Of a DNA stretch of 64,000 nucleotides, positions 3,761 to 63,815 are shown piece after piece (positions within the stretch are counted from its first letter, which is position 1; every line of letters begins with the position of its first letter). The notes under the pieces were generated by a model that saw only the letters and a program-made list of their open reading frames with translations, ran no database searches and was not told where the DNA came from. The translations under genes and the position numbers were made by a program. The DNA comes from Enterobacteria phage KhF3, in sequence record KT184315.1; one strand, given 5' to 3'.

Positions 3761-3922
3761 AAGGAGAAACCACAATGTACGTCAGAGACATACTGTATAA
3801 GTCTTCTTATAAAGTATAGCTCTGTAAAAAAGCCCTGTCTAAAAATACTCTTCGGTAGCGAAAGGAAGAATACTTATAGCAGGGCATTATTATTATTTTA
3901 ATTGAGAGAGAGTAAAATAACT

Positions 3923-3998
3923 TGGAGAATCCGAAGGGACTCGAACCCTTATAAACCTGTTTTGCAGACAGGAACATAGCCATTTCTGTCACGGATTC
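3923..3998 (-). tRNA. tRNA-Cys (anticodon GCA)
   Basis: Manual cloverleaf on reverse complement: 7-bp acceptor, T-loop, anticodon loop CTGCAAA, CCA encoded. Confidence 0.7.
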
Positions 3999-4002
3999 AA
4001 AT

Positions 4003-4095
4003 TGGAGGAAGATACCAGACTTGAACTGGTACACCGATTTCTCAGCTACTGGCAGTTTAGCAAACTGCTCCCTTACCTTTTAGGGTTAATCTTCC
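4003..4095 (-). tRNA. tRNA-Ser (anticodon GCT), class II
   Basis: Acceptor GGAAGAT/ATCTTCC, anticodon stem GCAGT/ACTGC loop TTGCTAA, long variable arm. Confidence 0.7.
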
Positions 4096-4096
4096 A

Positions 4097-4831
4097 TTAT
4101 TTCTGTAATGCGTTCTTCATTTCTGGTGTTGCAATAGTGTCAATCACACCAGTTTTACAAGCATCATCAAACCAGTCTGGTAAGATACCTGCTAAGAACC
4201 CATTGATATTCGTTTTAAGGTACTCTGCAATAAGAGCAGCTTCTTCTTCAATCATCTGCACAACTTCATCTGCATAAGCTGTAATCTTCGAAATACCTTC
4301 ATTAATCTTACTAACAGCTTGGTTAGCTAAATCAGAAATAGTATCAAGACCTTTGTCAATAGCATCTTGTAAGTCACTTAATACATCATTAACGACATCT
4401 AGTGCACTGTTAATTGTGTCAATAGCTTTTTGACCATATTCTGTAGCAACGCCCATAATACCACTAAACGGTGTACAGCCAACTTGTTCCCCTGCTGCAC
4501 CCATAACATTGGAATACCCCTTTGCTACCTGCATACGTGATGAAAACTCATCAATAGACTTTTGACCATAGTCTGTTAAGGTCTTAGTAGTCGCTGTAGT
4601 GCTTGTAAGGCTTGTTGTAAAGCTGTTTAGAAGGACTGTTGTAAGTCCAGCAGCAACAAGTTTCTCCTTCATTGTAGGGTCTGTTACAGAGCTAATAGAA
4701 CTTACAAGTGATGTAGAGGCAGCTACGGTTCCACCGAGAACTGCTGCACCAGTAATAAGGGGATTAGAAAACCCTCTACCGGTTTTTAAGAGATTAAAAA
4801 TCTCCTTACCTTGTTCTGTCATCTCTTTCAT
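4097..4831 (-). CDS. hypothetical Ser/Thr-rich protein
   Basis: Track ORF 4097..4894 uses GTG inside tRNA-Phe; in-frame ATG at 4829-4831 with AAAGGTG RBS avoids the overlap. Confidence 0.5.
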   Translation of the reverse strand: MKEMTEQGKEIFNLLKTGRGFSNPLITGAAVLGGTVAASTSLVSSISSVTDPTMKEKLVAAGLTTVLLNSFTTSLTSTTATTKTLTDYGQKSIDEFSSRMQVAKGYSNVMGAAGEQVGCTPFSGIMGVATEYGQKAIDTINSALDVVNDVLSDLQDAIDKGLDTISDLANQAVSKINEGISKITAYADEVVQMIEEEAALIAEYLKTNINGFLAGILPDWFDDACKTGVIDTIATPEMKNALQK

Positions 4832-4847
4832 TAAGCACCTTTGTAAT

Positions 4848-4924
4848 TGGTAGTCCAGTGGGATTTGAACCCTCTTCTCATGTTTTTCAGACACGCGCTT
4901 TAACCATATAAGCTACTTGGACTA
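4848..4924 (-). tRNA. tRNA-Phe (anticodon GAA)
   Basis: Acceptor TAGTCCA/TGGACTA, anticodon loop CTGAAAA; D-arm imperfect. Confidence 0.6.
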
Positions 4925-4929
4925 TAAAT

Positions 4930-5005
4930 TGGGGTGACCTACGGGATTTGAACCCGTATAGACCATGTTCACAGCATGGGTCATTACCATTTATGATAAG
5001 GCCAC
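4930..5005 (-). tRNA. tRNA-His (anticodon GTG)
   Basis: Anticodon stem CCATG/CATGG loop CTGTGAA; CCA encoded. Confidence 0.7.
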
Positions 5006-5036
5006 ATTTAAGGACTCTCGTAAGAATCCTTAGAAG

Positions 5037-5112
5037 TGGCAGCGGCATAAGGATTTGAACCTTAATAGGACAGCTTCAGAGACTGTTGCATTGCCAGTTA
5101 TGCTATACCGCT
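5037..5112 (-). tRNA. tRNA-Gln (anticodon CTG)
   Basis: Full cloverleaf, anticodon loop CTCTGAA. Confidence 0.7.
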
Positions 5113-5117
5113 AAATT

Positions 5118-5196
5118 TGGTACTCCATATCGGATTCGAACCGATACATAACACAGATTTTAAGTCTGGCCTCTCTGCCAATTGGAGTAATGGAGC
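5118..5196 (-). tRNA. tRNA with anticodon TAA (Leu by anticodon), short variable arm
   Basis: Acceptor GCTCCAT/ATGGAGT, T-arm ATCGG-TTCGAAT-CCGAT, anticodon loop CTTAAAA, discriminator A, 76 nt without CCA. Confidence 0.55.
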
Positions 5197-5198
5197 AT

Positions 5199-5274
5199 TG
5201 GCGGGGGATGTTGGAATTGAACCAACTTCTTCGATTTCAAAGACCGAGGTTTTAACCTTGTAAACTAATCCCCT
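5199..5274 (-). tRNA. tRNA-Gln (anticodon TTG)
   Basis: Anticodon stem TCGGT/ATCGA loop CTTTGAA; position 1-72 mismatch. Confidence 0.7.
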
Positions 5275-5282
5275 TTAAATCT

Positions 5283-5840
5283 TTACTTTCTCAGTGGATG
5301 AATAAAGAATGCCAACATAACTCTTTCCCTTGAGAATGCTCTTTCTTCTGGGACAACACTTTTTAGTTTCCATCCAATATAAATTCTCCAGTAAAACTGT
5401 TTACCAAAGACTTTAATTGATGGGATAAAGGCGAATAATCCCCAAGCATTACTGTTCCACATTAGGAGATAACCAGTCTGATTATCTTCAGGGTCAGAAC
5501 TTACGTTGATATTACCTTTCCACTTAGTAACATCTTTTACATCTCTTCCTAATACATGGTAAGAGAAGTTATAAGCTTTGTTTCTCCAGAGCCATCCGAC
5601 TCTTTGCATGTAGACGCCTAGTTTACCAATCCATCTAATATTAGCCCATCTTTTAACGTGACCTTCATCACCATCAATTGGGTTGTCATATGTCTCCATC
5701 CATCTGAACCCGAAAGGTAAGTGTCCTTTCTTCTCACTGTAGAATGGAACTACAAAAGGTGCTAAGATAACTGCTAAGATTGCTGCAAATGGTTCTAACA
5801 AAGCTAAGAAAATCCATGAAGCATACTTTAAGTATCTCAT
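5283..5840 (-). CDS. hypothetical membrane protein
   Basis: 185-aa ORF with hydrophobic N-terminus, between tRNA blocks. Confidence 0.5.
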   Translation of the reverse strand: MRYLKYASWIFLALLEPFAAILAVILAPFVVPFYSEKKGHLPFGFRWMETYDNPIDGDEGHVKRWANIRWIGKLGVYMQRVGWLWRNKAYNFSYHVLGRDVKDVTKWKGNINVSSDPEDNQTGYLLMWNSNAWGLFAFIPSIKVFGKQFYWRIYIGWKLKSVVPEERAFSRERVMLAFFIHPLRK

Positions 5841-6079
5841 TGTCTAATCCTCGTAAGGAGGTAAATGTTATTATTCGTTTCTAAACCTTCTGGTAAAACT
5901 ATCTCAAAAATAACACTCTTCAGATGTCTACCACCAAAACAATCACGTATAAATCTTTCTACTCTAGCGGGGTCACATAAGTATCCCACTTTTAAGAAAA
6001 TGTGGTGTTCAACACCAATGACCCTGACAAACTCAATACTCTCACAGTTTTCATGTTCAACTACTGTTAATGTTTGCAT
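5837..6079 (-). CDS. hypothetical protein
   Basis: 80-aa ORF, stop overlaps downstream start. Confidence 0.4.
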   Translation of the reverse strand: MQTLTVVEHENCESIEFVRVIGVEHHIFLKVGYLCDPARVERFIRDCFGGRHLKSVIFEIVLPEGLETNNNIYLLTRIRQ

Positions 6080-6096
6080 AGTATCACCTTTTTATC

Positions 6097-6172
6097 TGGC
6101 GCAGGATAAGGGATTCGAACCCCTATTAACAGCTTCGTAGACTGTTGCTCTTTCCATTTGAACTAATCCTGC
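6097..6172 (-). tRNA. tRNA-Arg (anticodon ACG)
   Basis: Anticodon stem ACAGT/GCTGT loop CTACGAA. Confidence 0.7.
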
Positions 6173-6177
6173 AAAAT

Positions 6178-6255
6178 TGGTGTTCCAAGACGGATTCGAA
6201 CCGTCACTAATACAAGGTTTGAGCTTGCATCCTCTGCCAATTGGGATACTGGAAC
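6178..6255 (-). tRNA. tRNA with anticodon CAA (Leu by anticodon), short variable arm
   Basis: Acceptor GTTCCAG/TTGGAAC, anticodon stem GCAAG/CTTGT loop CTCAAAC, T-arm GACGG-TTCGAAT-CCGTC, discriminator A. Confidence 0.55.
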
Positions 6256-6256
6256 A

Positions 6257-6331
6257 TGGTACTCACTAAAGGACTTGAACCTTTTTCTTCATCTTGTAAG
6301 GGTGATGTTTTACCATATAAACTAAGCGAGT
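6257..6331 (-). tRNA. tRNA-Val (anticodon TAC)
   Basis: Anticodon loop CTTACAA, D-stem GTTT/AAAC, discriminator A. Confidence 0.65.
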
Positions 6332-6427
6332 ATGAAAGAGGTCTGGAGTTGTGCCGCTAACTCAACTCCGTGGAATTTGTTACGGTCTTCAGTTGACTCA
6401 AAGCGGTCTTTCACTTGACCTCTGAAT
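6332..6427 (-). other. structured spacer element (not a canonical tRNA)
   Basis: No T-loop; ends pair GAGGTC/GACCTC; internal 7-bp hairpin GGAGTTG/CAACTCC; contains GAAGACCGT motif shared with other spacers. Confidence 0.3.
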
Positions 6428-6503
6428 TGGTGCTCCCACAAGGACTCGAACCCTGATAAGTTGCTTACAAGGCAACCGTAATAACCAATTATACGATAGG
6501 AGC
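6428..6503 (-). tRNA. tRNA-Thr (anticodon TGT)
   Basis: Anticodon stem GTTGC/GCAAC loop CTTGTAA. Confidence 0.7.
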
Positions 6504-6510
6504 ATTAATT

Positions 6511-6585
6511 TGGAGCATCCAGAGGGAATCGAACCCTCAACCTCAGTTTGGAAGACTGTAATTTTCCCGTTTAAACTATGGATGC
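6511..6585 (-). tRNA. tRNA-Gly (anticodon TCC)
   Basis: Anticodon loop CTTCCAA, discriminator T. Confidence 0.65.
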
Positions 6586-6591
6586 ACTAAT

Positions 6592-6667
6592 TGGTGGAGT
6601 CACCGAGAATTGAACTCGGTTCCCAAGTTTGCAAAACTCGAATTTTAACCATATAAACTATGACCCC
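6592..6667 (-). tRNA. tRNA-Ala (anticodon TGC)
   Basis: Anticodon loop TTTGCAA; G3-U70 pair in acceptor stem. Confidence 0.7.
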
Positions 6668-6673
6668 ATTGTT

Positions 6674-6749
6674 TGGTACAGGTGGAGGGAATTGAACCCA
6701 TCGTCTTACTGATTAAGAGTCAGCCGCATAACCATTTTGCTACACCTGC
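6674..6749 (-). tRNA. tRNA-Lys (anticodon CTT)
   Basis: Acceptor and anticodon arm fold, but T-stem is only 3 GC pairs. Confidence 0.5.
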
Positions 6750-6756
6750 ATTAATT

Positions 6757-6833
6757 TGGTACACCTAGAGAGATTCGAACTCACACTGAGCAGATTCTAA
6801 GTCTGCTGCCTCTACCAGTTGGGCTATAGGTGC
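6757..6833 (-). tRNA. tRNA with anticodon TAG (Leu by anticodon), short variable arm
   Basis: Acceptor GCACCTA/TAGGTGT, anticodon stem GCAGA/TCTGC loop CTTAGAA, 5-nt variable loop, 74 nt without CCA. Confidence 0.55.
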
Positions 6834-7086
6834 ATTAAATCTTTTTAGAGAACTTCTAAGAACCTAAGCAACAAGGCTCCACAACAAGCTGTAATAACCT
6901 TAGAAGCCCTCTAAAAAGACCTAAATAGGTCTTTGCATAGTCTTGTTTAATCCGGTGACTAGAACCTTTGGAGAGCTTGATATTATCTCTTCTCCGTGAC
7001 ACCTACTAGGTGCTTTGACAGTGTACGACAATACACGAGGGATAAACCGACAATGCGAACAAGCATGGACGGAGTAAATCTTATTA

Positions 7087-7176
7087 GGCGGTAAGTAAAG
7101 GAGTCGAACCCTCACCGTATCTCTACAGTGGCAACTGTTTTCAAGACAGTTTGGCTACCATTAGCCGCTACCTACC
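7087..7176 (-). tRNA. tRNA-Ser (anticodon TGA), class II
   Basis: Acceptor GGTAGGT/ACTTACC, anticodon stem ACTGT/ACAGT loop CTTGAAA, long variable arm. Confidence 0.55.
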
Positions 7177-7189
7177 CCTAATAAGACTT

Positions 7190-7272
7190 TGGCATGGGAC
7201 GGAGGAGTTGAACCCCTTTGAAACGGTTTTGGAGGCCGTTGCTCATGCCTTAGAGTCTTAACATCGTCCCAT
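7190..7272 (-). tRNA. tRNA-Trp (anticodon CCA)
   Basis: Acceptor ATGGGAC/GTCCCAT, anticodon loop CTCCAAA; D region longer than usual. Confidence 0.5.
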
Positions 7273-7414
7273 ATTATAATTCGAAGCTTACCCTGTTATC
7301 TCAACACTGTCAAGCTTCTTCTCAGATTATTTACATGTTCTGGAAAACATGAGATACAGACCACCTCCCTACAGGAAGACCCGCTAAGGCCGTCTAAGTA
7401 ATCTGCTAACTATT

Positions 7415-7491
7415 TGGTACACCCTACAGGATTCGAACCTGTAACTAACGATTTAGAAGACCGTTGCTCTATCCAATTGAACTAAGGGTGC
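7415..7491 (-). tRNA. tRNA-Arg (anticodon TCT)
   Basis: Anticodon stem ACGGT/ATCGT loop CTTCTAA. Confidence 0.7.
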
Positions 7492-7737
7492 ATTATCTTT
7501 AAAGACTCTCTTAGAAAGCCCTTAAAGATGCCCACCTTATTAATCATACCGTGGGCGAGTACGCCAAATTCTTTGATGAGGGATTGGAAGACCTCACTGG
7601 TGTTTAGCCTATCAAGCTACTGCCAGAAAAACATTGTCGTTTGCATTTATTTTAAATTTGCAAAATAGACGCTACGCAACGAAAACTAAGGTTACTATAA
7701 AGTAGTCACATCTCAATGTCAACAACTTTATTGAAAT

Positions 7738-7813
7738 TGGTACTGGTAGGTGGAATCGAACCACCGATGTTCCCTTATCAGGGGAGTGTTATAACCTTCT
7801 TAACTATACCAGC
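7738..7813 (-). tRNA. tRNA-Ile (anticodon GAT)
   Basis: Anticodon loop CTGATAA, T-stem GGTGG/CCACC. Confidence 0.65.
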
Positions 7814-7814
7814 T

Positions 7815-7891
7815 TGGAGGTTCAGATGGGAATCGAACCCACATTCATAGGGCTTATGAGACCCTTGCATTACCTTATCTGCGACTGAACC
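7815..7891 (-). tRNA. tRNA-Met (anticodon CAT), elongator-like
   Basis: Acceptor GGTTCAG/CTGAACC fully paired, anticodon loop CTCATAA. Confidence 0.65.
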
Positions 7892-7969
7892 AGAATAAGT
7901 ACCCTAGTTAGAGAAACTGTTGAGTGGGTGTTTCCAGCCGCGCAGGTGTTTCTCAGTTAAGGGTGAATT

Positions 7970-8045
7970 TGGTAGAAGTGGAGGGATTCGAACCCATCGC
8001 CTGTCAGATTAAAAGTCTGCCGCATCACCATTCTGCTACACTTCC
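7970..8045 (-). tRNA. tRNA-Lys (anticodon TTT)
   Basis: Anticodon loop CTTTTAA; T-stem weak, same T-arm sequence as the CTT copy. Confidence 0.55.
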
Positions 8046-8050
8046 ATTAA

Positions 8051-8192
8051 ATTATCTTTGTAGATAAGCTACCCAGACTTGCTTAAGGTCTGTAGCGATG
8101 TGCCTTTTTGGGTTTAAATCTAGAATTTACCCTTTCACCCTTTGTGGTCGCATACTCACAGGTAAGCTTAATAACTTATCTACAAAGATAAT
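8051..8192. repeat. perfect 17-bp inverted repeat flanking about 108 bp
   Basis: ATTATCTTTGTAGATAA at 8051-8067 and its exact reverse complement at 8176-8192. Confidence 0.8.
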
Positions 8193-8194
8193 TA

Positions 8195-8326
8195 CCAGAC
8201 CGTTGTTTATCATCTTAAGTGCTACCATTACACCAACTCGACATCTGCCGAGTGAAGGAATCGAACCTTCGCCTTTTCTTTACCGGAGAAATAGATTGTT
8301 TAAGTTTTGCTGTAAACGGTCTTCTG
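8195..8326 (-). ncRNA. candidate structured small RNA with tRNA-like module
   Basis: Closing stem CCAGACCG / CGGTCTTCTG; inside, T-arm GAAGG-TTCGATT-CCTTC followed by an ACTCGGC/GTCGAGT hairpin and a D-arm-like GTGTAATGGTAGCAC; order is not that of a canonical tRNA. Confidence 0.35.
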
Positions 8327-8339
8327 TAAAATTGTTGAG

Positions 8340-8418
8340 CCAGACCAAGTTTTATAAATTTTTTCAAAATTAAATTGGCTTGAAAATATCATACGTACTT
8401 GCTGAATTTGGTCTTCTG
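8340..8418 (-). other. inverted-repeat-bounded spacer element
   Basis: CCAGACCAAG ... TTGCTGAATTTGGTCTTCTG. Confidence 0.3.
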
Positions 8419-8505
8419 CTCCTTTAAAGAATACTCGTAAGAACTCTTTAAGGGAGGGGCTAAAATAGCCCTCTCAAACATCATTTTGAAATACTTATTA
8501 TAATT

Positions 8506-8583
8506 TGGCGGTTACGAAGGGATTTGAACCCTCATCATCTCCCGTGACAGGGGAGTATTTTAACCAGATTAAACTACATAACC
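8506..8583 (-). tRNA. tRNA-Asp (anticodon GTC)
   Basis: Anticodon stem CTCCC/GGGAG loop CTGTCAC, CCA encoded. Confidence 0.7.
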
Positions 8584-8589
8584 TTTATT

Positions 8590-8677
8590 TGGTGTGCCGT
8601 GTAGGAGTCGAACCTACCGAGTCTCAATGACAAGGGATTTACAGTCCCCACCGCTACCATCTACGGGATAACGACAC
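8590..8677 (-). tRNA. tRNA-Tyr (anticodon GTA), class II
   Basis: Anticodon loop CTGTAAA, long variable arm, T-stem GTAGG/CCTAC. Confidence 0.65.
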
Positions 8678-8686
8678 ATTTAAATT

Positions 8687-8763
8687 TGGCGGTTAGTCAG
8701 GGATTCGAACCCTGTGCCATTCGCTTAACAGGCGACCGCACATACCTTATGTGCTTCCTAACC
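8687..8763 (-). tRNA. tRNA-Asn (anticodon GTT)
   Basis: Anticodon loop CTGTTAA, T-arm CAGGG-TTCGAAT-CCCTG. Confidence 0.65.
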
Positions 8764-8774
8764 TTAATACATTG

Positions 8775-8834
8775 CCAGACCGTGTTTTTTCTTTTATCCG
8801 CAAAAAGTATTTTGTTGCTGAATACGGTCTTCTG
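8775..8834 (-). other. inverted-repeat-bounded spacer element
   Basis: CCAGACCG ... TTGCTGAATACGGTCTTCTG. Confidence 0.3.
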
Positions 8835-8840
8835 CAAAAT

Positions 8841-19100: not shown

Positions 19101-20676
19101 GAGTAAAATTTACGAAATTTATATTTTTTATAAAATTTTATCGGTTGTTCCAACCTCTGGGTCACCATCATATGTGAACAAAATATCTATCCTTCTTAAC
19201 AGCCTTCTTAATCTTATTCTCTATATAGTTATATAGTACTATATAGTATCTTAGTAACTATCTAGTGGTCTTAATAGCCCTCTGTATAGCCCTTCTAAAT
19301 AGCCCTCTAAACACTCTTCTAACAAGCCTTCTTAACAACCTATACAATCACCTTAACCATCTCTCTACACTCTCTTAGAAGCTCCTATACACCTCTTAAT
19401 CTCTATGTCAGCTATGATACTCTCTATAGGTGTTCACTAGGTGCTACTAAGCCTCTATATAGACTGTTTTAACAAACTTAACAGGAATATCTTTACAGAC
19501 CTTATCTCACAAGGTCTAACACGGTACTAACAAGGTATCTTATAAGCCTGTTATTACCTGTATTTTAGAAAGACTGTATAGGTAATTATTCAGATTTTTA
19601 AAATTTTTATAAAATAGGACTATCAAGTCATTTTTTAGGGTCTTTGAAGGAACTGAAAAATATCTGTAGAAGATGTATATCTGCTTGGTAGCCCTTAACA
19701 TCCCTGTAACATCCCCTTTGCAAAATTTTAAAATATCCTTAACAATCTCTTAACAGTTCTCACATCTTCTTAATAACTCTTCAAAGTTCTTAACAGATTC
19801 TTAACAGAACTAACAAGGGCTTAACAGTTTTCTAACAAGTGCTGAATAGACTTTACAGAATCTTAACAGATTCCTAACAAGAGCTCAGTAGTTAAATGTT
19901 AAGAGTTATTTTGTTAAGATAATTAACAAGTTTCTAACAAGTGTTTAATCTTTTTAACAAGCTATTAACATGGTCACTACTCTTTTCTTATCGTTCCCTT
20001 TCCTTTCTTAGTGATTCCTTAAACATACCTCTTAAAAGCTCTGTATAGCTCTGTATAACCCCTTTTAAGCCTCTTCCTAGTAATTACACCCCAACTATAC
20101 AGATACCTCTTTATAGGGCTTTACAGGGGCTTTAAAGGCTATGTCAAAGGTTCTTACAAGGCTTTTACGTGGTTTTAACAGAGATTTAACAAGGGGCTAA
20201 CAAGTCTCTAACAAGTGCCTTAAAAGCATAACTATGTAGGGATTGTTAAGAAATTGTTAAGAAAATGTTAAGGGGGCTAGCATTTACGTAACTTTTAAGC
20301 AACTTTGAAGTAACTTTATAACCCCTATAACATACTTTTCAGTTACTATCAAGGGGCTTGTTTAGTAGTTCACAAGATAGCTAACGAGATAATAAAACTT
20401 ACACCCTTATAAGATTCTTTTAAGGTTCTAGGAAGCTTTATAAAGGGCTTTTTAGAGCAGGTTAATATGATTGCTTAAGTTAGGTTGATAAGGCTGTTAT
20501 AGAGCTTTATAGAGCGTTTTAGTGGTTGCCCTTCCCTTTCGGGTTATGGGCTTATATTTAAGTTGATTTGATAAGAAGATATAGAGTAGACTATAGAGTT
20601 ATTGCTTTTAAGGTCTGGTAAGATTCTAACTTGTTAGGGGAGTCTGGGAAGATTCTGGGAAGGGATTGGATAGACG
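19101..20676. repeat. 1.6-kb non-coding region dense in short direct repeats (YTAACAR, CTATAGAG families)
   Basis: No ORF over 60 aa; more than 20 copies of CTTAACAG / CTAACAAG / TTAACAAG-like octamers; lies between convergent terminators. Confidence 0.7.
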
Positions 20677-20740: not shown

Positions 20741-20989
20741 TTAGTTGTAACCTTGTTTGCTGTAGTATAGGGAGACGATTTTTTCTCCCCAGTAGTGGTA
20801 GTGATATTCCTCGTTTATGGCTTCTTTTACAGCGTCCTTCCAAAAGTCATCGGTAGGGTTATAATCTGGTAGCACCTGCTGAATCAGCATTTTGATAAGG
20901 TCAAAGGTGTTATCTGTTCCACCGATATCGAATTTTGCATCAAGTTCGTGGCAGCCATAAGCATTAACAGTTACGCGGATAGTTGACAT
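20741..20989 (-). CDS. early-region small hypothetical protein
   Basis: 82-aa ORF preceded by cassette with GGAG RBS. Confidence 0.5.
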   Translation of the reverse strand: MSTIRVTVNAYGCHELDAKFDIGGTDNTFDLIKMLIQQVLPDYNPTDDFWKDAVKEAINEEYHYHYWGEKIVSLYYSKQGYN

Positions 20990-21054
20990 AATTTAGATTC
21001 TCCAGTTTAGGACTTTACTTAGTGGGGGGAGGTCATCCCCCGTTAATTAGTAAT

Positions 21055-21318
21055 TTACTGCATATTGGCGTATGTTGCAAGCCTTTTTTCGTTGTATTTT
21101 GTAAGAATCTCACAAGATACAACATCATACTTTGTAACAGCGTTGCCTTTATCGAGGTCAAAAAAGCCAAACGCTTTACCATCTTTGAATCCGACAACTT
21201 CGTAAGATTCTTTGATGATTTCACCATTGAACAAATCACTTTCGATACGGTGAAATAATGCTACATCTTCTTTGTCGGTTGCAATTTGTAAAAGTGTGGT
21301 TAATTCTACGTTTTCCAT
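21055..21318 (-). CDS. early-region small hypothetical protein
   Basis: Chosen over overlapping track ORFs because the cassette RBS sits immediately upstream. Confidence 0.5.
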   Translation of the reverse strand: MENVELTTLLQIATDKEDVALFHRIESDLFNGEIIKESYEVVGFKDGKAFGFFDLDKGNAVTKYDVVSCEILTKYNEKRLATYANMQ

Positions 21319-21407
21319 CTTGATAACTCCAGTTTAGGACTTTATTTAGTGGGGAAGGTCATTCCCTCCCCGTTGATTGACAATTTACAGATTTTTATCA
21401 GGCTTGT

Positions 21408-21641
21408 CTAGTCTTTTTCAATGATAATTTCATACTGACCATCTACGCTGTCAAAATAGACACCTTCTTCATCTTCTGTCTTAAAGTAACATTGTATATC
21501 ATCACTGGCGGGATAGTCTTGCCTTGCTATCTGGCACACTTGAACAGCATTTTCTTTACTCCCTGTAAACTCCTCAAGCCCTTTAAAATCGCATGAATGA
21601 CCGTTACAAATAGAAAGGATGAGGTAAATGGTTGTAAGCAT
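21408..21641 (-). CDS. early-region small protein with hydrophobic N-terminus
   Basis: 77-aa ORF. Confidence 0.45.
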   Translation of the reverse strand: MLTTIYLILSICNGHSCDFKGLEEFTGSKENAVQVCQIARQDYPASDDIQCYFKTEDEEGVYFDSVDGQYEIIIEKD

Positions 21642-21707
21642 GATTTAAGCCTCTTAAAAGCCCCTTACAGGGGCTGAATAGTGTTTATAAGGTGATTGCA
21701 TAGGTTT

Positions 21708-22250
21708 TTAGAAAAAACCCTTTAAATCCTCTTCTGCGATGTTTCCTGTCAGTGTATCCATGATGTCACAAAAAACCTGAATACTGTCCGACTGTTGAAC
21801 ACTTTTAGCAAGTAGTTCTAATGTCTCATCAAGATAGTTTAAATTTGGGTTATCCAATGAAGGAAGACAAAAAGGTGAATACATAGCGTTAAACTCTGTT
21901 GTATAGACCTTTTTAATCCAATTTATATCAAAATACTCTGTAAAACTTGCTACACTCGACATATTATCACAAGAATAATCATCGTTTAGTTCATCCTCTG
22001 GAATATCAAGTTCTAGGATAACAATATTTTGTGTCTTCATCTGGAAAGCTGCGGTGATAGTGGCATTGCCTAAAGCTTGCTGGATACCTTCAGAGATTAT
22101 TTCTTCCTCATCGTCGCCATAGATTTTATTTTCTGGATACACGTAAAAATTGCCGTCCATATCCGAACAATTCCATGCGCCTGATGGTTTATCACCGTTA
22201 TTAATCAGGTTGAGGAAATTTTCTTGAGTAGTTCCGTGATAGCATTTCAT
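21708..22250 (-). CDS. early-region hypothetical protein
   Basis: 180-aa ORF. Confidence 0.5.
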   Translation of the reverse strand: MKCYHGTTQENFLNLINNGDKPSGAWNCSDMDGNFYVYPENKIYGDDEEEIISEGIQQALGNATITAAFQMKTQNIVILELDIPEDELNDDYSCDNMSSVASFTEYFDINWIKKVYTTEFNAMYSPFCLPSLDNPNLNYLDETLELLAKSVQQSDSIQVFCDIMDTLTGNIAEEDLKGFF

Positions 22251-22337
22251 TTTTGAATCTCCTAGTTTAAGGATTTAGTGGTAAAGCTCTTTATCTGGGG
22301 CTTACTTTATCGAACTATAAGCCCCTTGTAAAGTACT
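22251..22337 (-). promoter_or_regulatory. early-gene cassette type A: promoter overlapped by palindrome, then RBS
   Basis: Minus-sense AT-rich tract, TTTACA, 17 nt, TAAAGT; palindrome GGGGCTTA-N13-TAAGCCCC spans the -10; GGAGA RBS; about 7 near-identical copies. Confidence 0.55.
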
Positions 22338-22586
22338 TTATTTAACTTTCTTTGAGAAAATTAGTTTAACTGCAACCGTAGGAACCTCGTCAGCGATTGT
22401 AACCAGCATCACTTTTTGAGTGACCAACTTATAACCGTTCTTTGCAGCGTATGCGGTAAAACGGTTGACATTGTAACTATAAGTTTTTGGTGTGTTATCT
22501 GGCATGTGGTAAATGAAAGGTTTACCCAAATTTTCTTCTTGTGTCAATAATCTACAGGTATCGGGAATGTTAAAGTAGTTCATCAT
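22338..22586 (-). CDS. early-region small hypothetical protein
   Basis: 82-aa ORF flanked by cassettes. Confidence 0.5.
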   Translation of the reverse strand: MMNYFNIPDTCRLLTQEENLGKPFIYHMPDNTPKTYSYNVNRFTAYAAKNGYKLVTQKVMLVTIADEVPTVAVKLIFSKKVK

Positions 22587-22672
22587 TTTTAGAATCTCCA
22601 GTTTAGGATTTAGTGGTAAAGCTCTTTATCTGAGGCTTAAGTTATCAACTTTTAAGCCCCTTGTAAAGTACT

Positions 22673-22876
22673 TTATTTGTTATTTTTGACAACTTTTAAA
22701 ACTGCAAGATAGCCTAAGCAATAAGAATCACCGAAGAGAGTCCTACCCATGAAAGAATCCTCTTTGATATCCTTTGCAGTGACAGTTTTTTCTACGCCGT
22801 GGGAAAGGACTATATCACCAACTTTGATATCTTTGATGTGTGTAGTTTCAATGGTTAAACCATTAATAATAGCCAT
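22673..22876 (-). CDS. early-region small hypothetical protein
   Basis: 67-aa ORF flanked by cassettes. Confidence 0.5.
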   Translation of the reverse strand: MAIINGLTIETTHIKDIKVGDIVLSHGVEKTVTAKDIKEDSFMGRTLFGDSYCLGYLAVLKVVKNNK

Positions 22877-22978
22877 TTTTAGAATCTCCAGTTTAGGACT
22901 TTATTTAGTGGGGAAGGTCATTCCCTCCCCGTTGATGTGTAATTTAATCTATCTAAAAACCAGTGTCAACAAAATTTT
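22877..22978 (-). promoter_or_regulatory. early-gene cassette type B: promoter, leader hairpin, RBS
   Basis: Minus-sense TTGACA (22964-22969), 17 nt, TAAATT (22941-22946); 8-bp GC hairpin GGGGAGGG/CCTTCCCC in the leader; GGAGA RBS; about 5 copies. Confidence 0.6.
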
Positions 22979-23383
22979 TTAGAGTTCTGCATAAATTGCA
23001 TCACAGATATCGCGGAAGTCATGATTAGTCAAATTACGCTGCAACCAAGTGGCGAAAAAGTCAGCGATTGCAAAGTTAGCATCATACTCGACAGATAGCC
23101 ACACTTTAACAGCAAATCGGAACATTTTCAAATCTAACTCTTTATTCATTACCTTAGATTTGCCTAACATGTCGGACATTTCATATTGCGCACCGTCTAG
23201 TGTGATACCTGCTGCAACGTCAGCCAATGAATTTTTTACGTTTTCAACGTCTAAAATAACGCTTTGAATCTTTCCGATAATGTTGTGCAATGTCTCATCA
23301 GGCGCTGATGATGTCATAATGTTGATTCGATTAACGGTCAAACGTGCTTTTAAGGTTGATAATTCACGGTTATTAATAGCCAT
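22979..23383 (-). CDS. early-region hypothetical protein
   Basis: 134-aa ORF. Confidence 0.5.
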   Translation of the reverse strand: MAINNRELSTLKARLTVNRINIMTSSAPDETLHNIIGKIQSVILDVENVKNSLADVAAGITLDGAQYEMSDMLGKSKVMNKELDLKMFRFAVKVWLSVEYDANFAIADFFATWLQRNLTNHDFRDICDAIYAEL

Positions 23384-23468
23384 TTTAGAATCTCCAATTT
23401 AGGATTGAGTGGTAAAGTTCTTTATCTGGTGCTTACTTTATCGAACTATAAGCCCCTTGTAAAGTACT

Positions 23469-23741
23469 TTATACTAAATGCAGCTTTTTACCTTTTACTA
23501 TGATGTAACTAGATGCACTATTGCTTTGCACATCCTGATAAATTCTGCGCAAACGTCCTTCGTAGTATACTTTCCAACTGGTTGGAATCTTTTTCCCGTA
23601 TCCTGTAGCAGTTTTTTGGAGTCCTGCAACTTGCCAATTTAAGATGTGTTGCTCAGCCCGTAAATCTTCAAAGCACATCACACCGTCTACATAGTGACGC
23701 AAGGTGACATTTAAGGTGCGACCGTTGTTAGTAGTATACAT
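23469..23741 (-). CDS. early-region small hypothetical protein
   Basis: 90-aa ORF. Confidence 0.5.
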   Translation of the reverse strand: MYTTNNGRTLNVTLRHYVDGVMCFEDLRAEQHILNWQVAGLQKTATGYGKKIPTSWKVYYEGRLRRIYQDVQSNSASSYIIVKGKKLHLV

Positions 23742-23830
23742 TTTCAGAATCTCCAGTTTAGGACTTTATTTAGTGGGGAAGGTCATTCCCTCCCCGTTGA
23801 TGTGTAATTTAGCCTATCTAAAAATCAGTG

Positions 23831-24163
23831 TCAAACACTTTGTTTTCGTTTGCTCAATTCTTGAACAATTACAGCGTAGTAGTCTTTTAAGTCACTGATA
23901 TTTAAAGCGTTTATCAGTGAATTATAATCATCAATAAGTTGATAGTCATCTTTGAAAATGTCACTAATCTGATAGGTTTTCGCTTTAAATCTAAAGCTCA
24001 TCTCTAGCCGCTTTATTTGCTCATCACTTAAACGCCCTAGAAAGCTCTCTACAAGGTTATTACTAACCTGCTGTGTGATTGCCTTACTTGCCAGATTATA
24101 GGCTTTATATGCCTTATATAGCGCGAAAATGGCAATGATTGCAGTGATACCAGTCATTAACAT
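23831..24163 (-). CDS. early-region small membrane protein
   Basis: N-terminal hydrophobic helix. Confidence 0.5.
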   Translation of the reverse strand: MLMTGITAIIAIFALYKAYKAYNLASKAITQQVSNNLVESFLGRLSDEQIKRLEMSFRFKAKTYQISDIFKDDYQLIDDYNSLINALNISDLKDYYAVIVQELSKRKQSV

Positions 24164-24453
24164 GGTGTTTCCTCTTTACGTGATACTTTGCCATTTACAG
24201 ATATCTCATAAGATTCTAATAAATCGCTTTTAGACTTTACAGGACTTTTAAAAGTATCATCATAAATATTAACTTGCAATACAGGTTTTTTATACTCCCT
24301 GCAACTGTTCCATAAGCAAATCACTACACGACGGCCTTTGATTTTTCCGTGTAACCATTCCATAACATCATGACTATTCCTTGATGTTTCAATGAAATCA
24401 ATTTTATTAAGTAACTTGCTTAAATTTTCACGGACTTTATTTGATAATTTCAT
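24157..24453 (-). CDS. early-region small hypothetical protein
   Basis: 98-aa ORF. Confidence 0.5.
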   Translation of the reverse strand: MKLSNKVRENLSKLLNKIDFIETSRNSHDVMEWLHGKIKGRRVVICLWNSCREYKKPVLQVNIYDDTFKSPVKSKSDLLESYEISVNGKVSRKEETPC

Positions 24454-24545
24454 TTTAGAATCTCCTAGTTTAAGGGTTGATTTGAATAAAGCTCTTTATC
24501 TGGGGCTATCTTATCAGTCTGATAACCCCGTGTAAAGAAATCTAT

Positions 24546-25058
24546 TTAGTTCTTAAAGATATTCATCACTGAGTCTTTCAACGATTCCAAACGTTCTAAT
24601 ACTTCAGATTCTGCGTCTGCGTTGTTCACCTCTTCTTTTAGTCTATCCTCTAAATCATCGCCGTCACGATAGCACCAATCGAAAGCATAACCAAGATAAA
24701 AACTTTCTAAAACCGTGCTACCGTTTGCATCCACAACTTTCGCGGCAAGGTTATACTCTGAAGCCTCTAAATCTCTTTCTAGTTCTTTCTGTAAGCTCGT
24801 GTAAGCCTCTTTCGATGGATTCTCACGGCCTTGTTTTGCATAGTCACTTGAAAGCTGTTTAAGGCTGTAATGTAAAGGGATTGCATATTTAAATTCATTA
24901 CGCTGACAGTTAGGATTTTTAATCGTCACACCGCCTTGATGGTCATCTGTAAACTTCCAATTATCAAGATTATGGCTTGCTTCAAAGCAATTTACCGCTT
25001 CGTAAATAATGGTGAATTTTTCTTTTACAACTTCAAAGGTAGCGTCTACAGTTTTCAT
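24546..25058 (-). CDS. early-region hypothetical protein
   Basis: 170-aa ORF. Confidence 0.5.
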   Translation of the reverse strand: MKTVDATFEVVKEKFTIIYEAVNCFEASHNLDNWKFTDDHQGGVTIKNPNCQRNEFKYAIPLHYSLKQLSSDYAKQGRENPSKEAYTSLQKELERDLEASEYNLAAKVVDANGSTVLESFYLGYAFDWCYRDGDDLEDRLKEEVNNADAESEVLERLESLKDSVMNIFKN

Positions 25059-25145
25059 TTTTGAATCTCCTAGTTTAAGGATTGAGTGGTAAAGCTCTTT
25101 ATCTGGGGCTTAAGATATCAACTTTTAAGCCCCCTGTAAAGTACT

Positions 25146-25454
25146 TTATTTGTTAATTTTCAGCTTTGCATAACTTCTCATTGTACGAATGGGGGATGTT
25201 AATGCTACGCGTCTAATGTATGCCTTTTTCGTGTATACAGTTGTCTTCCCGATAGTGTTTACACATGTAAAAAGGTTTATCGGTGAATTTTTTAACTTCA
25301 ACTGTTTATCAACCTTCACGCCCCACCTTACAGCAGATTGTTTTCCGTTGTCAACCACTTTCCCGCATAACTTTTTAGCCATGATACGAGCGTCATCACG
25401 AGTCTTTGCGGTAATTACAACGTTTTTGATAATAGCCATTTTTAAGTTCTCCAA
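25146..25454 (-). CDS. early-region small basic protein
   Basis: 102-aa ORF. Confidence 0.5.
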   Translation of the reverse strand: MENLKMAIIKNVVITAKTRDDARIMAKKLCGKVVDNGKQSAVRWGVKVDKQLKLKNSPINLFTCVNTIGKTTVYTKKAYIRRVALTSPIRTMRSYAKLKINK

Positions 25455-25525
25455 TTTAGGATTTAGTGGTAAAGCTCTTTATCTGGGGCTTACTTTATCG
25501 AACTATAAGCCCCTTGTAAAGTACT

Positions 25526-25909
25526 TTATTTGTTAATTTTGAAGGTAGTTACATAACCATCACTACCGATTATTTGAGACACTCCAGCTTTTTCTACTTT
25601 ATAGCCCATATTTTCAAGATGATAAACAGCATCATCATAACCATATGCGCCACCCTGATAACGTCTCTTATCACATTTTATCAGGTTTTTACCACGTCCA
25701 GCAAGTGCATGTAAAATGGCTTTTTCACTTGAAAGAGTACCATCTAACATGGTTGCCGTGTAATGGTTGATTCTATTCCCGTTTACATCATACTTAAAAT
25801 TGAATGCGTGAACAATGATAATGTTACCTTTAAAATTTTCATCAAGTGACTTCTCCAGTGCGTTGCGAAAGTTGTCTTTGTTGATGAATTTCGGTGCACG
25901 ATAAGCCAT
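25526..25909 (-). CDS. early-region hypothetical protein
   Basis: 127-aa ORF. Confidence 0.5.
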   Translation of the reverse strand: MAYRAPKFINKDNFRNALEKSLDENFKGNIIIVHAFNFKYDVNGNRINHYTATMLDGTLSSEKAILHALAGRGKNLIKCDKRRYQGGAYGYDDAVYHLENMGYKVEKAGVSQIIGSDGYVTTFKINK

Positions 25910-25997
25910 TTTTGAATCTCCTAGTTTAAGGGTTAATTTAGTAAAGCTCTTTATCTGGGGCTTAAGATATCAGCTTTTAAGCCCCCTGTAAAGTACT

Positions 25998-26219
25998 TTA
26001 TTTGTCGTAGTAGTAAATCGCTGTCTGCCTTGTAAATTTCTTAGTGTTTCTTGTAAGGTAGCAATTAGAATTAATAGCCGTTTCTACATAGTTGCAATAG
26101 TCGGCTTCTGATATTCTGGACCATACGCCACAAATTTGCATGTAAAAACGTTTTACCTTTGTGTTAACGTTAGTTGTAACCATCAATTCACGACTGTAAA
26201 GCATTATTTCGCGCTCCAT
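25998..26219 (-). CDS. early-region small hypothetical protein
   Basis: 73-aa ORF. Confidence 0.45.
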   Translation of the reverse strand: MEREIMLYSRELMVTTNVNTKVKRFYMQICGVWSRISEADYCNYVETAINSNCYLTRNTKKFTRQTAIYYYDK

Positions 26220-26392
26220 TTCTCAAAGAGTTCAGCAGGGAAACGTTCGCTATACCCTTTTAAGGAAAAAGTATTATCTTTGTGGATAGCTTCCACCTGA
26301 TAAACCTTATAAGAGCGTATAGTTAGCATTTTGTAAGAGTATTCGTGCTTAATGTTAACCTCATCGCCAACTTTAATTTTTCTTGATGCCAT
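26204..26392 (-). CDS. early-region small hypothetical protein
   Basis: 62-aa ORF, first gene behind promoter 26456-26484. Confidence 0.45.
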   Translation of the reverse strand: MASRKIKVGDEVNIKHEYSYKMLTIRSYKVYQVEAIHKDNTFSLKGYSERFPAELFEKWSAK

Positions 26393-26455
26393 TTTTGAAT
26401 CTCCAGTTTAGGATTTTATTTAGTGGGGAAGGTCATTCCCTCCCCGTTGATGTAA

Positions 26456-26484
26456 ATATTAGATAACCACGTTCAAAGAGTCAA
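26456..26484 (-). promoter_or_regulatory. sigma70-like promoter heading the early array
   Basis: Minus-sense TTGACT, 17 nt, TAATAT, with AT-rich upstream tract. Confidence 0.6.
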
Positions 26485-26660
26485 TAAAAATTTTAAAAAT
26501 ATTTTTGGCAAAACTGTAATGAAACGGGTGCGCACGACTACCACAAAACAGAACGCAAATCAAGAATTATTTTTCAATCCGCTACAAATTTTTCTATTGA
26601 CTTTTGGGGAGAGGGGGAGTAAGAGGGGGAGAGGTGTTGGGCTGGCTGTCTATAAAAACC

Positions 26661-26839
26661 TACCTGCACAATTCTAAAATGATTTTTCTTGCCCGACCTG
26701 AGCGGAGTCTGCACGTTTTGAAAATGAAAAAGCTCTTTGGAGATTACCTGCACAGTTTGAAAATGAATTTTCTCTTTGGAGTTCAAAATTCTCTCTACAG
26801 ATTTCTCTACAGAACTCTACCTGCACAATTCTGAAATGA
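26661..26839. repeat. four direct repeats CTGCACARTTYTRAAATGA in non-coding region
   Basis: Copies near 26664, 26710, 26748, 26821; adjacent G-rich tract GGGGAGAGGGGGAGTAAGAGGGGGAGAGG at 26606-26634. Confidence 0.65.
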
Positions 26840-26912
26840 AAAAGCCCTCCTTACCTGAAAAATTTACCAGATAAGAAAGGCTTAGGCTATTGTGAATATC
26901 CTACAGAGTTTC

Positions 26913-27698
26913 TTAGTTCTTTGCGTCTAAGAAGGTAACTTCTGGTGAAGAGAAGATTGCCTCGATATCCTCATCAGTTCTTGCATAGATATAAGCTTCT
27001 GCATCACTACCAAATGTTACAGCAATTCTGTGATTGCTCTTTGACAGGTGGGTAACTAGAGCGTTACTTAGAGACATCTTTTCAACCGGAGGGTTACTTT
27101 GATGTATCTTACCTTTTCTTCGTCTGAAGAGGGTAACTGCATTATCCGTGAACACAACTACACCTGCAAAGTATTCTGGTTCACAGTAGTTCTCCCAACC
27201 TGAGCGTAACTTGTGGTACATCTCTCCTTCATAGACATATAGATAAACATCTACACTCTTCATCACCTGATTAATGATAACTGTGACGGCTTGAGGGTCT
27301 AGCCCACCGATACCTGCACCAATCATAGGTAACCCGACTTTCTTCAACTGATTGACTTCACAGTATCTGTTAAGCTGTTTCAAAGATGACTCTAAAGCAC
27401 TGTATCGGGCATCTTTACCAGTCTTAAGCTGAGTGTAAAGGTTAGCTATACGACCTTGTTTTAAACGTGCTACAGAGAAATTACCCAGTAAATTTTCACA
27501 GGGTTTGTGTCCTATACCACCTGCATATAGATAAACTTCTGTATCGGTCTCATATGCTTTTGGGTAAAGTTTAGAAATCTTGTCAGCGATACCTGCACCC
27601 ATTAAATTCATACAGTTGCAACCGTGACCGATGATGTCAAACTTACCTTTATCAAATGCGGCAAAGATATCACCATTGATTATTTTTACAATACCCAT
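26913..27698 (-). CDS. macro domain-containing protein (ADP-ribose binding or hydrolase)
   Basis: N-terminal GDIFAAF ... IGHGCNCMNLMGAGIADKI matches the macro-domain glycine-rich signature. Confidence 0.6.
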   Translation of the reverse strand: MGIVKIINGDIFAAFDKGKFDIIGHGCNCMNLMGAGIADKISKLYPKAYETDTEVYLYAGGIGHKPCENLLGNFSVARLKQGRIANLYTQLKTGKDARYSALESSLKQLNRYCEVNQLKKVGLPMIGAGIGGLDPQAVTVIINQVMKSVDVYLYVYEGEMYHKLRSGWENYCEPEYFAGVVVFTDNAVTLFRRRKGKIHQSNPPVEKMSLSNALVTHLSKSNHRIAVTFGSDAEAYIYARTDEDIEAIFSSPEVTFLDAKN

Positions 27699-62120: not shown

Positions 62121-62430
62121 CATCACTTAAGAGTCTTCTAAGAGGGTTTTTAAGTGATGTGAGGTATGGTAGTGTTCTGTTCGGTACGGTGTGGCACGGT
62201 AATGCTAGGTCTGGTCAGGTCGGGTCAGGTGCGGTACAGTATGGGTAGTTAGTCTCATCTACATTAAAATGAGACTTACCTTTTTAAAAGGTCTTTAAGA
62301 GGGTTTTTTAATGAGGTAGGGTAAAGTAATGTTTGGTCTGGTTTGGTAAGGCGCGGTCTGGTTTGGTAAGGTAAGGTTCGGTATGGTATGGGTGGATGGT
62401 AGTAGCCACGTTAAAAATCTACCAAGTTTC
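62121..62430 (+). repeat. two tandem units: conserved block, GGT-rich tract, hairpin
   Basis: Blocks TAAGAGGGTTTTT, GGT-periodic tracts (GGTATGGT, GGTCTGGT, GGTAAGG), hairpins AGTCTCAT ... ATGAGACT + T5 at 62251-62286 and GGTAG ... CTACC at 62398-62423. Confidence 0.7.
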
Positions 62431-63542: not shown

Positions 63543-63566
63543 GCCTCTTCGGAGGCTCCTTTTTAA
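63543..63566 (+). terminator. rho-independent terminator
   Basis: GCCTC-TTCG-GAGGC followed by TCCTTTTT. Confidence 0.7.
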
Positions 63567-63815
63567 AAGGTCTTTAAGAGGGTCTTTTAATGAGGTAGTA
63601 TACGGTATGGTGGGGTAGGGTGAGGTCTGGTTTGGTAAGGTAGGGTCTGGTATGGGTAGTTAGTCTCAGCTACATTAAAATGAGACTTACCTTTTTAAAA
63701 GGTCTTTAAAAGGGTCTTTTAACAAGGTATTGTATGGTGTAGTTTGGTTAGGTATGGTTAGGTGTGGTAAGGTAAGGTATGGAAGGATGGCAGTAGCCTT
63801 ATAAAAAATCTGCCA
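63565..63815 (+). repeat. two further tandem units of the GGT-rich repeat family
   Basis: AAAAGGTCTTTAAGAGGGTCTTTT blocks, GGT-rich tracts, hairpins AGTCTCAG ... ATGAGACT and GGCAG ... CTGCC. Confidence 0.7.

Follow-up and report, generated by a model that had tools for sequence, protein, structure and literature searches.

Genomic setting of the cassette array

The window (the whole stretch of DNA analysed here, 64,000 nt of Enterobacteria phage KhF3, KT184315.1) is, by its sequence relationships, from a Felix O1-like phage of the genus Felixounavirus. Its region 21000-27000 showed 96% identity to Enterobacteria phage KhF2 and matched 255 phage records, nearly all from Felixounavirus. Between 20.7 and 28 kb the genes are carried on the minus strand, and the palindrome described in the original prediction is therefore read here as its reverse complement. 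Clustered at 20.9-26.5 kb are seven copies of one intergenic cassette (type A) and five of another (type B). The type A cassettes, at 22.2-26.0 kb, sit upstream of minus-strand ORFs of unknown function. No Pfam match was found for the 15 genes of the array, and the 10 array genes scanned against PHROGs all fell into unknown-function families.

Type A cassettes occur across 288 phage records, among them SUSP1 and SUSP2, Citrobacter phages and 29 records of Erwinia phages. Using blastn, we found that DR_1, DR_7 and DR_9 of the wV8 RefSeq record (NC_012749) are type A cassette sequences (100% identity); that record labels them as repeat_region only, with no function given. An Rfam scan of the whole window at the gathering threshold returned tRNAs only, and the cassettes matched no family. 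The tRNA matches form a cluster of 24 genes at 3900-9200 (minus strand), as expected for Felix O1-like phages. Positions 128599-133005 of GenBank GU169904 (Staphylococcus phage SA1, 147 kb) are 91% identical to the Felixounavirus early region, and Campylobacter-named records also match that region; these are probably chimeric or contaminated records.

Several other features lie near the array or elsewhere in the window. Just upstream of the array, a 261-aa protein with a Macro domain (PF01661, E = 1e-7) is encoded at 26913-27698 (minus strand). In relatives it is named as a phosphatase, as the ymdB O-acetyl-ADP-ribose deacetylase or as a 'possible RNase III inhibitor'. YmdB of E. coli is a reported regulator of RNase III, and it is curious to find this gene beside hairpins that look like RNase III sites (see below). 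A canonical terminator at 26883-26842 (minus strand) matches t13 of Felix O1. Between this terminator and the first cassette of the array, positions 26520-26840 are non-coding and contain repeated boxes like ctacctgcacaattctaaaatga and a polypurine run, ggggagagggggagtaagagggggagagg. At 19757-19970 there are dense TTAACA / CTTAACAG motifs (repeat family D6), many of them about 11 nt apart, which look like iterons, or a binding array or origin. Four intergenic copies of a repeat of about 105 nt (families D3/D5) occur at 62140-62400 and 63560-63800 on the plus strand, each with a conserved head TAAAAGGTCTTTAAGAGGGTYTTTTAA, a GGT-rich tract of about 90 nt with a periodicity of about 8 nt, and a small hairpin, agtctca..tgagact. 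No ORF of at least 35 aa was found in the D3/D5 region, which is kept in about 230 Felixounavirus records and has no functional annotation as a repeat region; the repeats may represent a GU-rich non-coding RNA or a protein-binding array.

Organization of the type A cassette

In all seven type A copies, the order on the minus strand is TTTACA, one base, 5' arm, loop and 3' arm (Table 1), with arms of 8 nt each and a loop of 12-13 nt. The inverted repeat GGGGCTTA-N13-TAAGCCCC reported in the original prediction is real: six copies with at most one mismatch are present in the window (22297, 22632, 23428, 25105, 25485 and 25957), and shuffling the window 100 times yielded no match. In the seventh copy, at 24502-24529, the inverted repeat has diverged to GGGGTTAT-N12-ATAGCCCC, its arms having changed in a compensatory manner. 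The claim that the palindrome overlaps the core promoter also held in all seven copies, in which it spans from one base after the -35 element to about +1. A motif TAnnnT is located exactly 17 bp past TTTACA in every copy; the 3' arm begins with the last T of this motif. The hexamer TAAAGT, previously given as the -10 element of the cassettes, was found in three copies (22304, 23435 and 25492) but not in the other four, which carry TATCTT (two copies), TAACTT (one) or TAAGAT (one).

The earlier description missed an outward extension of the repeat. A box upstream of the 5' arm (the u-box, TAAAGTACTTTA), which includes the stop codon and runs into the -35 element as far as its fourth base, pairs with a box 3' of the 3' arm (the d-box, TAAAGAGCTTTA). 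In six of the seven copies, the u-box opens with the stop codon TAA of the upstream gene; in the remaining one, this codon is located immediately 5' of the box. The u-box is followed by CA, which completes the -35 sequence TTTACA, and one further base; the 3' arm is followed by AGA, the d-box, a leader, GGAGA, 7-8 nt and ATG. The whole module is about 93 bp long, and the imperfect inverted repeat of about 66 nt lies over the promoter, so that the hairpin spans the upstream stop codon, the entire core promoter and about 17 transcribed bases.

Table 1. Cassettes of the early-region array and elements of cassette A1
Feature	Position	Strand	Description
Cassette A1	22248..22340	-	cassette of the original prediction; stop codon of ORF 22338-22586 to ATG of ORF 21708-22250
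A1 u-box TAAAGTACTTTA	22329..22340	-	stop TAA, A-rich stretch; last four bases begin the -35 element; 5' strand of the outer helix
A1 -35 TTTACA	22327..22332	-	from consensus scan and sequence
A1 5' arm GGGGCTTA	22318..22325	-	inner helix; in the promoter spacer
A1 -10 TAAAGT	22304..22309	-	in the hairpin loop; 3' arm begins at its last T
A1 3' arm TAAGCCCC	22297..22304	-	last -10 base plus discriminator to about -1
A1 AGA and d-box TAAAGAGCTTTA	22282..22296	-	d-box is the 3' strand of the outer helix; putative start A at 22296, placed from the -10 element
A1 leader	22251..22281	-	Shine-Dalgarno GGAGA at 22258-22262; initiation region common to type B cassettes
Cassette A2	22584..22675	-	arms GGGGCTTA/TAAGCCTC, sense-strand G.U; -10 TAACTT
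Cassette A3	23381..23471	-	arms GGGGCTTA/TAAGCACC, one mismatch; -10 TAAAGT
Cassette A4	24451..24544	-	arms GGGGTTAT/ATAGCCCC, compensatory changes plus U.G; 12-nt loop; -10 TAAGAT
Cassette A5	25056..25148	-	-10 TATCTT, preceded by TG
Cassette A6	25437..25528	-	-10 TAAAGT
Cassette A7	25907..26000	-	-10 TATCTT, preceded by TG
Cassette B1	20987..21080	-	TTGCAA-17-TAAATT; hairpin GGGGGATGACCTCCCCCC 10 nt past the -10 element
Cassette B2	21316..21410	-	hairpin GGGGAGGGAATGACCTTCCCC 3' of the promoter; site of an insertion of about 1.06 kb in KhF2 and LMP33
Cassette B3	22874..22969	-	TTGACA-17-TAAATT, then hairpin
Cassette B4	23739..23834	-	type B
Cassette B5	26390..26484	-	opens the array; canonical terminator 26883-26842 lies upstream

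The promoter of type A cassettes

A consensus scan recovered six of the seven type A copies as sigma-70-like promoters with 9 of 12 matches. We collected related cassettes by an exact-word scan of viral contigs (48 loci) and from annotated records, and compared the unique cores. TAnnnT was found 16-18 bp past TTTACA in 63 of 65 unique cores, at exactly 17 bp in 56 of them, and was represented by 14 different hexamers; in shuffled loops, the motif occurred at this distance in 9.7 of 65 cores. An extended -10 TG precedes the hexamer in 39 of the 65. Erwinia phage Rouille, a member of another genus (Kolesnikvirus), has retained the TTTACA/TAnnnT element as well. The loop sequence drifts while the -10 signature stays, as predicted for a working sigma-70 promoter. 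These comparisons bear out the placement of the promoter in the original prediction and support assignment of the type A promoter to the host sigma-70 type, TTTACA-17-TAnnnT.

From the position of the -10 hexamer, transcription would start at the A of AGATAAAG, about 7-8 nt past the hexamer, i.e., at 22296, 22631, 23427, 24501, 25104, 25484 and 25956 in the seven copies. The leader beginning at this A is predicted to be unstructured (-3.6 kcal/mol, z = 0.06).

Three other assignments were tried and rejected. A second promoter from the TTTAC of the d-box would have as its sole downstream TAnnnT a TAAACT only 9-10 bp away. TGCTTTA, as in a MotA box, is found within some u-boxes; its distance from the -10 element, however, is about 19 bp instead of the roughly 12 bp that is characteristic of T4 middle promoters. 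A hairpin promoter of the N4 type does not agree with the large loop, nor with a phage that has no RNA polymerase of its own (PMC3185647).

For Felix O1, secondary promoters, temporal control and transcription past many hairpins were left as open questions in the genome paper (PMC3185647). RT-PCR timing in Felix O1, which is crude, did not separate genes behind type A cassettes (ORF16 and ORF20 peaking at 5 min, ORF17 at 25 min) from those behind type B cassettes (ORF21 and ORF22 at 5 min, ORF19 and ORF23 at 25 min).

The inverted repeat is predicted to fold into a two-tier hairpin

The inner hairpin was predicted to fold at about -14 kcal/mol (z = -3 to -4.5). When whole cassettes were folded, the same two-tier hairpin was obtained for all seven copies (-15.4 to -21.9 kcal/mol, z = -2.8 to -5.2). 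Its outer tier is formed by the u-box and the d-box (6 bp, a 1x1 mismatch and 5 bp); its inner tier consists of a 3x3 internal loop, CAN/AGA, a GC-rich helix of 8-9 bp and a loop of 11-13 nt that contains the -10 element. The strands of the internal loop are nearly invariant.

We then compared the arms among relatives. A MAFFT alignment of the whole core was discarded since a gap in the 3' arm of the ATAG type broke the pairing register; instead, constructs of fixed register were used, in which the arms were anchored on GGGG/CCCC and the variable loop was replaced with TTTTT, so that they are artificial in the loop only. The 54 unique inner hairpins (156 in all) contain 13 distinct arm pairs. 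Swaps between arms are compensatory, CTTA/TAAG being replaced with TTAT/ATAG, and the two arm types coexist within the genome of KhF3 itself. Erwinia phages carry GGTG/CACC in place of GGGG/CCCC, again a compensatory change. Changes on both sides were found at pairs 3, 5, 7 and 8 of the inner helix and at pair 5 of the outer helix: inner pair 3 changes from G-C to U-A in Erwinia phages, pair 5 from C-G through U-G to U-A, pair 7 from U-A to A-U and pair 8 from A-U to U-A. None of 500 shuffles of the fixed-register constructs reached the observed covariation score. Between the 8-bp arms, the loop ranges from 11 to 14 nt across relatives.

Pairing is also biased towards one strand. For the fixed-register constructs, the paired fraction of cells is 96.5% when read on the sense strand and 90.5% when read on the antisense strand, and in slid registers it drops to 26-69%. 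Over the eight stem pairs of the unique inner hairpins, there are 394 Watson-Crick cells, 30 sense G.U cells, 1 antisense-equivalent A.C cell and 7 mismatch cells; the cassettes evolve in concert and the relatives are close, so neither the G.U nor the compensatory cells count as independent events, and we estimate about 5-6 distinct wobble states for the sense strand versus 2 for the antisense strand. About half of the unique variants are imperfect palindromes at the DNA level (T versus C at position 5), always oriented so as to give G.U on the sense strand; in some genomes, such as L003, with 10 cassettes all in the T.G state, none is a perfect DNA palindrome. The sense RNA was predicted to be the more stable in 44 unique inner hairpins and the antisense RNA in 15; for unique full cassettes (n = 91), the numbers were 61 and 29. 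Part of this asymmetry could come from a bias towards C-to-T mutation on the non-template strand.

Support for the outer helix is modest and comes from one covarying pair with 8 exceptions: at outer pair 5, 68 unique constructs showed G-C in 49, U-A in 10 (both sides changed), G-U in 1 and no pairing in 8. The outer helix could in part be a by-product of two near-palindromic direct repeats. A model in which the u-box and the d-box are each self-palindromic protein sites was rejected; no compensation was found within either box, and the model leaves 17 + 14 = 31 broken cells.

The original prediction pointed to an operator. In this reading, a dimeric repressor of the phage or the host, bound to duplex GGGGCTTA-N13-TAAGCCCC, would shut off all type A promoters together. 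As in lambda, lac and LexA-type operators, a dyad lies over the spacer and the -10 region; each copy of the repeat extends over core promoter sequence, GGGG/CCCC does not vary within Felixounavirus, and the centre-to-centre distance of 21 bp would place the two half-sites on the same face of the helix. Unlike in those operators, however, neither the sequence of the half-sites nor their spacing is conserved. Arms are swapped in a compensatory manner, even within one genome and in the GGGG/CCCC core of Erwinia phages; roughly half of the unique variants have half-sites that are unlike at position 5, the strand being the same in every case; and no DNA-binding Pfam family was matched among the 18 neighbouring proteins scanned. 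The compensation, the wobble bias and the varying loop fit a folded single strand and poorly fit a dimeric protein on fixed half-sites. A repressor operator is, in our judgement, very unlikely.

A folded single strand could also be DNA: the sense (non-template) strand, or a cruciform, might present the -10 element in a single-stranded loop and aid promoter opening, or serve as a signal for recombination or replication. G.T is tolerated in DNA as well, and the strand bias implicates the non-template DNA strand no less than RNA; moreover, the -10 element is always in the loop, and crossovers occur inside cassettes (see below). On the other hand, extrusion with an 11-13-nt loop and mismatches on the opposite strand would be energetically costly, and type B promoters, which belong to the same kind of cassette, have their hairpin downstream. 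Nor does the phage encode an RNA polymerase that might need hairpin promoters (PMC3185647). We give this possibility even slightly less credit than the operator, and we infer that the hairpin acts in RNA rather than in single-stranded sense DNA.

An RNA structure had been named in the original prediction as the alternative to an operator, and it comes closer, with one correction. Since the cassette's own transcript would begin only where the inner helix ends on its 3' side, the complete structure could form only in read-through RNA from the upstream gene.

Type B cassettes have a different promoter and a downstream hairpin

Five type B cassettes are interleaved with the type A cassettes in the same co-directional array. 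Their promoter is TTGACA-17-TAAATT, with no palindrome over it; a hairpin, GGGGAGGGAATGACCTTCCCC, with G.U on the sense strand, is located 10 nt 3' of the -10 element. The stem sequence of B1 differs again from those of the other type B hairpins. Judged from the sequences, what the two cassette types have in common is a GC-clamped hairpin, not a sequence. Since type B promoters lack the type A repeat, a repressor bound to that repeat could not silence the entire array.

The last 30 nt or so before the ATG are near-identical in types A and B (ACTAAAT..CCTAAACTGGAGATTCTAAAAATG, between 20987 and 26484) and include a GGAG Shine-Dalgarno sequence. RegB of T4 cleaves at GGAG; by analogy, this common initiation region could be a shared target for translational control or for GGAG cleavage.

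The cassette hairpins are unlikely to be canonical terminators

We also considered whether the structure is a canonical Rho-independent terminator that overlaps the promoter by chance. The GC-rich stem begins 13 nt past the upstream stop codon, and some related records annotate cassette hairpins as 'Rho-independent terminator'; these annotations, however, are on the strand opposite to the genes. There is no T-run past the stem on either strand, the loop is too large rather than short, and a terminator scan found none at any cassette while the same scan found the true terminator at 26883-26842. The missing T-run and the empty scan make a classical intrinsic terminator unlikely. As an identity for the type A hairpin it was rejected, and little probability remains for it, less than for either the operator or the DNA-level hairpin.

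Within the array, a canonical-looking terminator, AGCCCCTGTAAGGGGCTTTT, is located at 21655-21680 (minus strand) between ORF 21708-22250 and ORF 21408-21641. It was not listed by the scan, having fewer than 5 T in the 8-base tail window, and is unlike the cassette hairpins, which have no U-tract.

Comparison with RNase III sites of T7

The early RNase III signals of T7 (R0.3, R0.5, R1, R1.1 and R1.3) are likewise hairpins of two tiers in intergenic regions, about 20 bp in size, in which an internal loop separates the lower stem from a GC-rich upper one. Cleavage of the T7 early sites by RNase III is established. We folded the T7 intergenic regions that we take to be the locations of R0.3, R0.5 and R1.3. 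They gave a lower stem of 4-8 bp, an internal loop or single mismatch and an upper stem of 9-13 bp, at -18 to -24 kcal/mol; the predicted stability is similar to that of type A cassettes. According to the annotation, minor E. coli or T7 promoters adjoin several of these sites. The T7 sites differ in that their apical loops are 3-5 nt, the -10 element lies outside the hairpin, and there is no sequence similarity to the cassettes.

This likeness suggests a signal of the RNase III type built into the promoter: read-through RNA would be cleaved within the 3x3 internal loop of the hairpin or close to it, much as T7 RNA is at the early sites, so that the upstream message keeps a 3' hairpin and the 5' end of the downstream message adjoins the promoter's own start. 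The predicted folds of all seven copies show an irregular hairpin of about 20 bp in total, with a lower stem of 12 bp, an internal loop and a GC-rich upper stem of 8-9 bp; they resemble the T7 regions, they have no U-tract, and the CAN/AGA strands of the internal loop are almost invariant. That invariance, however, is equally explained by the -35 hexamer (CA) and the start site (AGA), the apical loop of 11-13 nt is much larger than in T7, and the lower stem is the modestly supported outer helix. We regard cleavage of this kind as a tentative, rather unlikely proposal. It would refine the role of the hairpin within the cassette and would not replace the cassette explanation given below.

Cassettes bound insertions and deletions

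Among 50 related loci, 87 of 108 internal homology ends (non-independent events) lay within 10 bp of a cassette; 20%, the share of the region that cassettes occupy, would be expected. Specific indels between close relatives end at cassettes. KhF2 and LMP33 have an insertion of about 1.06 kb at B2; in BPS17W1 and Meda, ORF 22338-22586 is missing, the gap lying exactly between A1 and A2; and the A7-B5 segment is absent from LMP33. The single cassette that remains in BPS17W1 and Meda is a chimera, A2-like in its 5' part and A1-like in its 3' part, showing that the crossover lay inside the cassette.

Discussion

PeSL (promoter-early stem-loop) cassettes have been described in T4-like phages, in RB49/phi1, T4/PST and KVP40/nt-1 (Arbiol et al. 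2010, PMC2839356; Comeau et al. 2014, PMC4122927). In these, an AT-rich region that contains the upstream stop codon is combined with a sigma-70 promoter and a stem-loop, and a Shine-Dalgarno sequence and ATG come next (PMC2839356). The stem-loop is polyG/polyC with G-T pairs and is mostly positioned between -35 and -10 or overlapping -10; PeSLs flank ORFans and mediate indels, and promoter and attenuator activity have been measured (PMC2839356).

Type A cassettes share all the sequence-level features of PeSLs and on that basis are PeSL-like. They form an intergenic module of about 100 bp, repeated in a variable region and flanking small ORFans, that begins at a stop codon in an AT-rich stretch and ends in a Shine-Dalgarno sequence and start codon; they carry a sigma-70-type early promoter and a stable polyG/polyC stem-loop with G-T pairs that overlaps -35/-10, and they have a sister class with the stem-loop downstream of -10. 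As with PeSLs, indels are bounded by the module and junctions are chimeric. There are also differences. The phages here are Ounavirinae rather than T4-like, and the likeness to the PeSLs of RB49 is one of description. The inverted repeat is longer (two-tier, about 66 nt) and includes the upstream stop codon as well as some 17 bases at the start of the transcript. Promoter, terminator and mini-circle activities were measured in RB49/phi1; the promoters of the present cassettes are predicted from sequence. The absence of a U-tract and the loop of 11-13 nt are atypical for terminators, so the published 'terminator' role of PeSLs may not carry over. In the literature that we searched, we found no description of such cassettes in Felix O1-like phages, PeSLs being treated mainly in papers on T4-like phages; the cassettes are not described in the papers on Felix O1, wV8 and UAB_Phi87 or in comparisons of Felixounavirus.

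The palindrome is therefore best read, with somewhat better than even confidence, as the stem-loop part of a PeSL-like composite cassette and not as a repressor site. The module would consist of a stop codon in an A-rich box, a sigma-70 promoter, the start, an unstructured leader of about 47 nt, GGAGA and ATG. In double-stranded DNA, the region would act simply as a promoter. In RNA made by polymerases coming from an upstream cassette, it would fold into the two-tier hairpin of about -22 kcal/mol, which would begin at the upstream stop codon and mark the 3' end of the upstream message; each gene would thus be an autonomous expression unit. In the absence of a U-tract, attenuation, endonucleolytic processing or protection from 3' exonucleases is expected rather than classical intrinsic termination. 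We therefore favour a 3'-end-forming or stabilising element on read-through RNA, for which attenuation and RNase III-type processing appear to be the two live versions. The near-identical cassettes would also provide homology for recombination, by which the genes between them could be inserted, deleted or swapped.

In one form, the PeSL-like cassette would serve two ends at once: a host promoter would be embedded in an RNase III hairpin like those of T7, and read-through RNA would be cut at the internal loop beside the start. This form, drawn by analogy with T7, is speculative and has the odds against it. If it is true, processed and primary messages would share a leader, the upstream message would keep a protective 3' hairpin, and every gene would be a self-contained unit of expression, processing and recombination across Ounavirinae.

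In the window alone, the cassettes represent at least a dozen candidate early promoters. They would explain the differences in the early region among otherwise near-identical Felix O1-like phages, and they would extend the PeSL idea, that genes are shuffled through regulatory modules, beyond T4-like phages. Felix O1-like phages are widely used in the biocontrol of Salmonella and E. coli, and the cassettes could be natural landing pads for the insertion of genes into their genomes.
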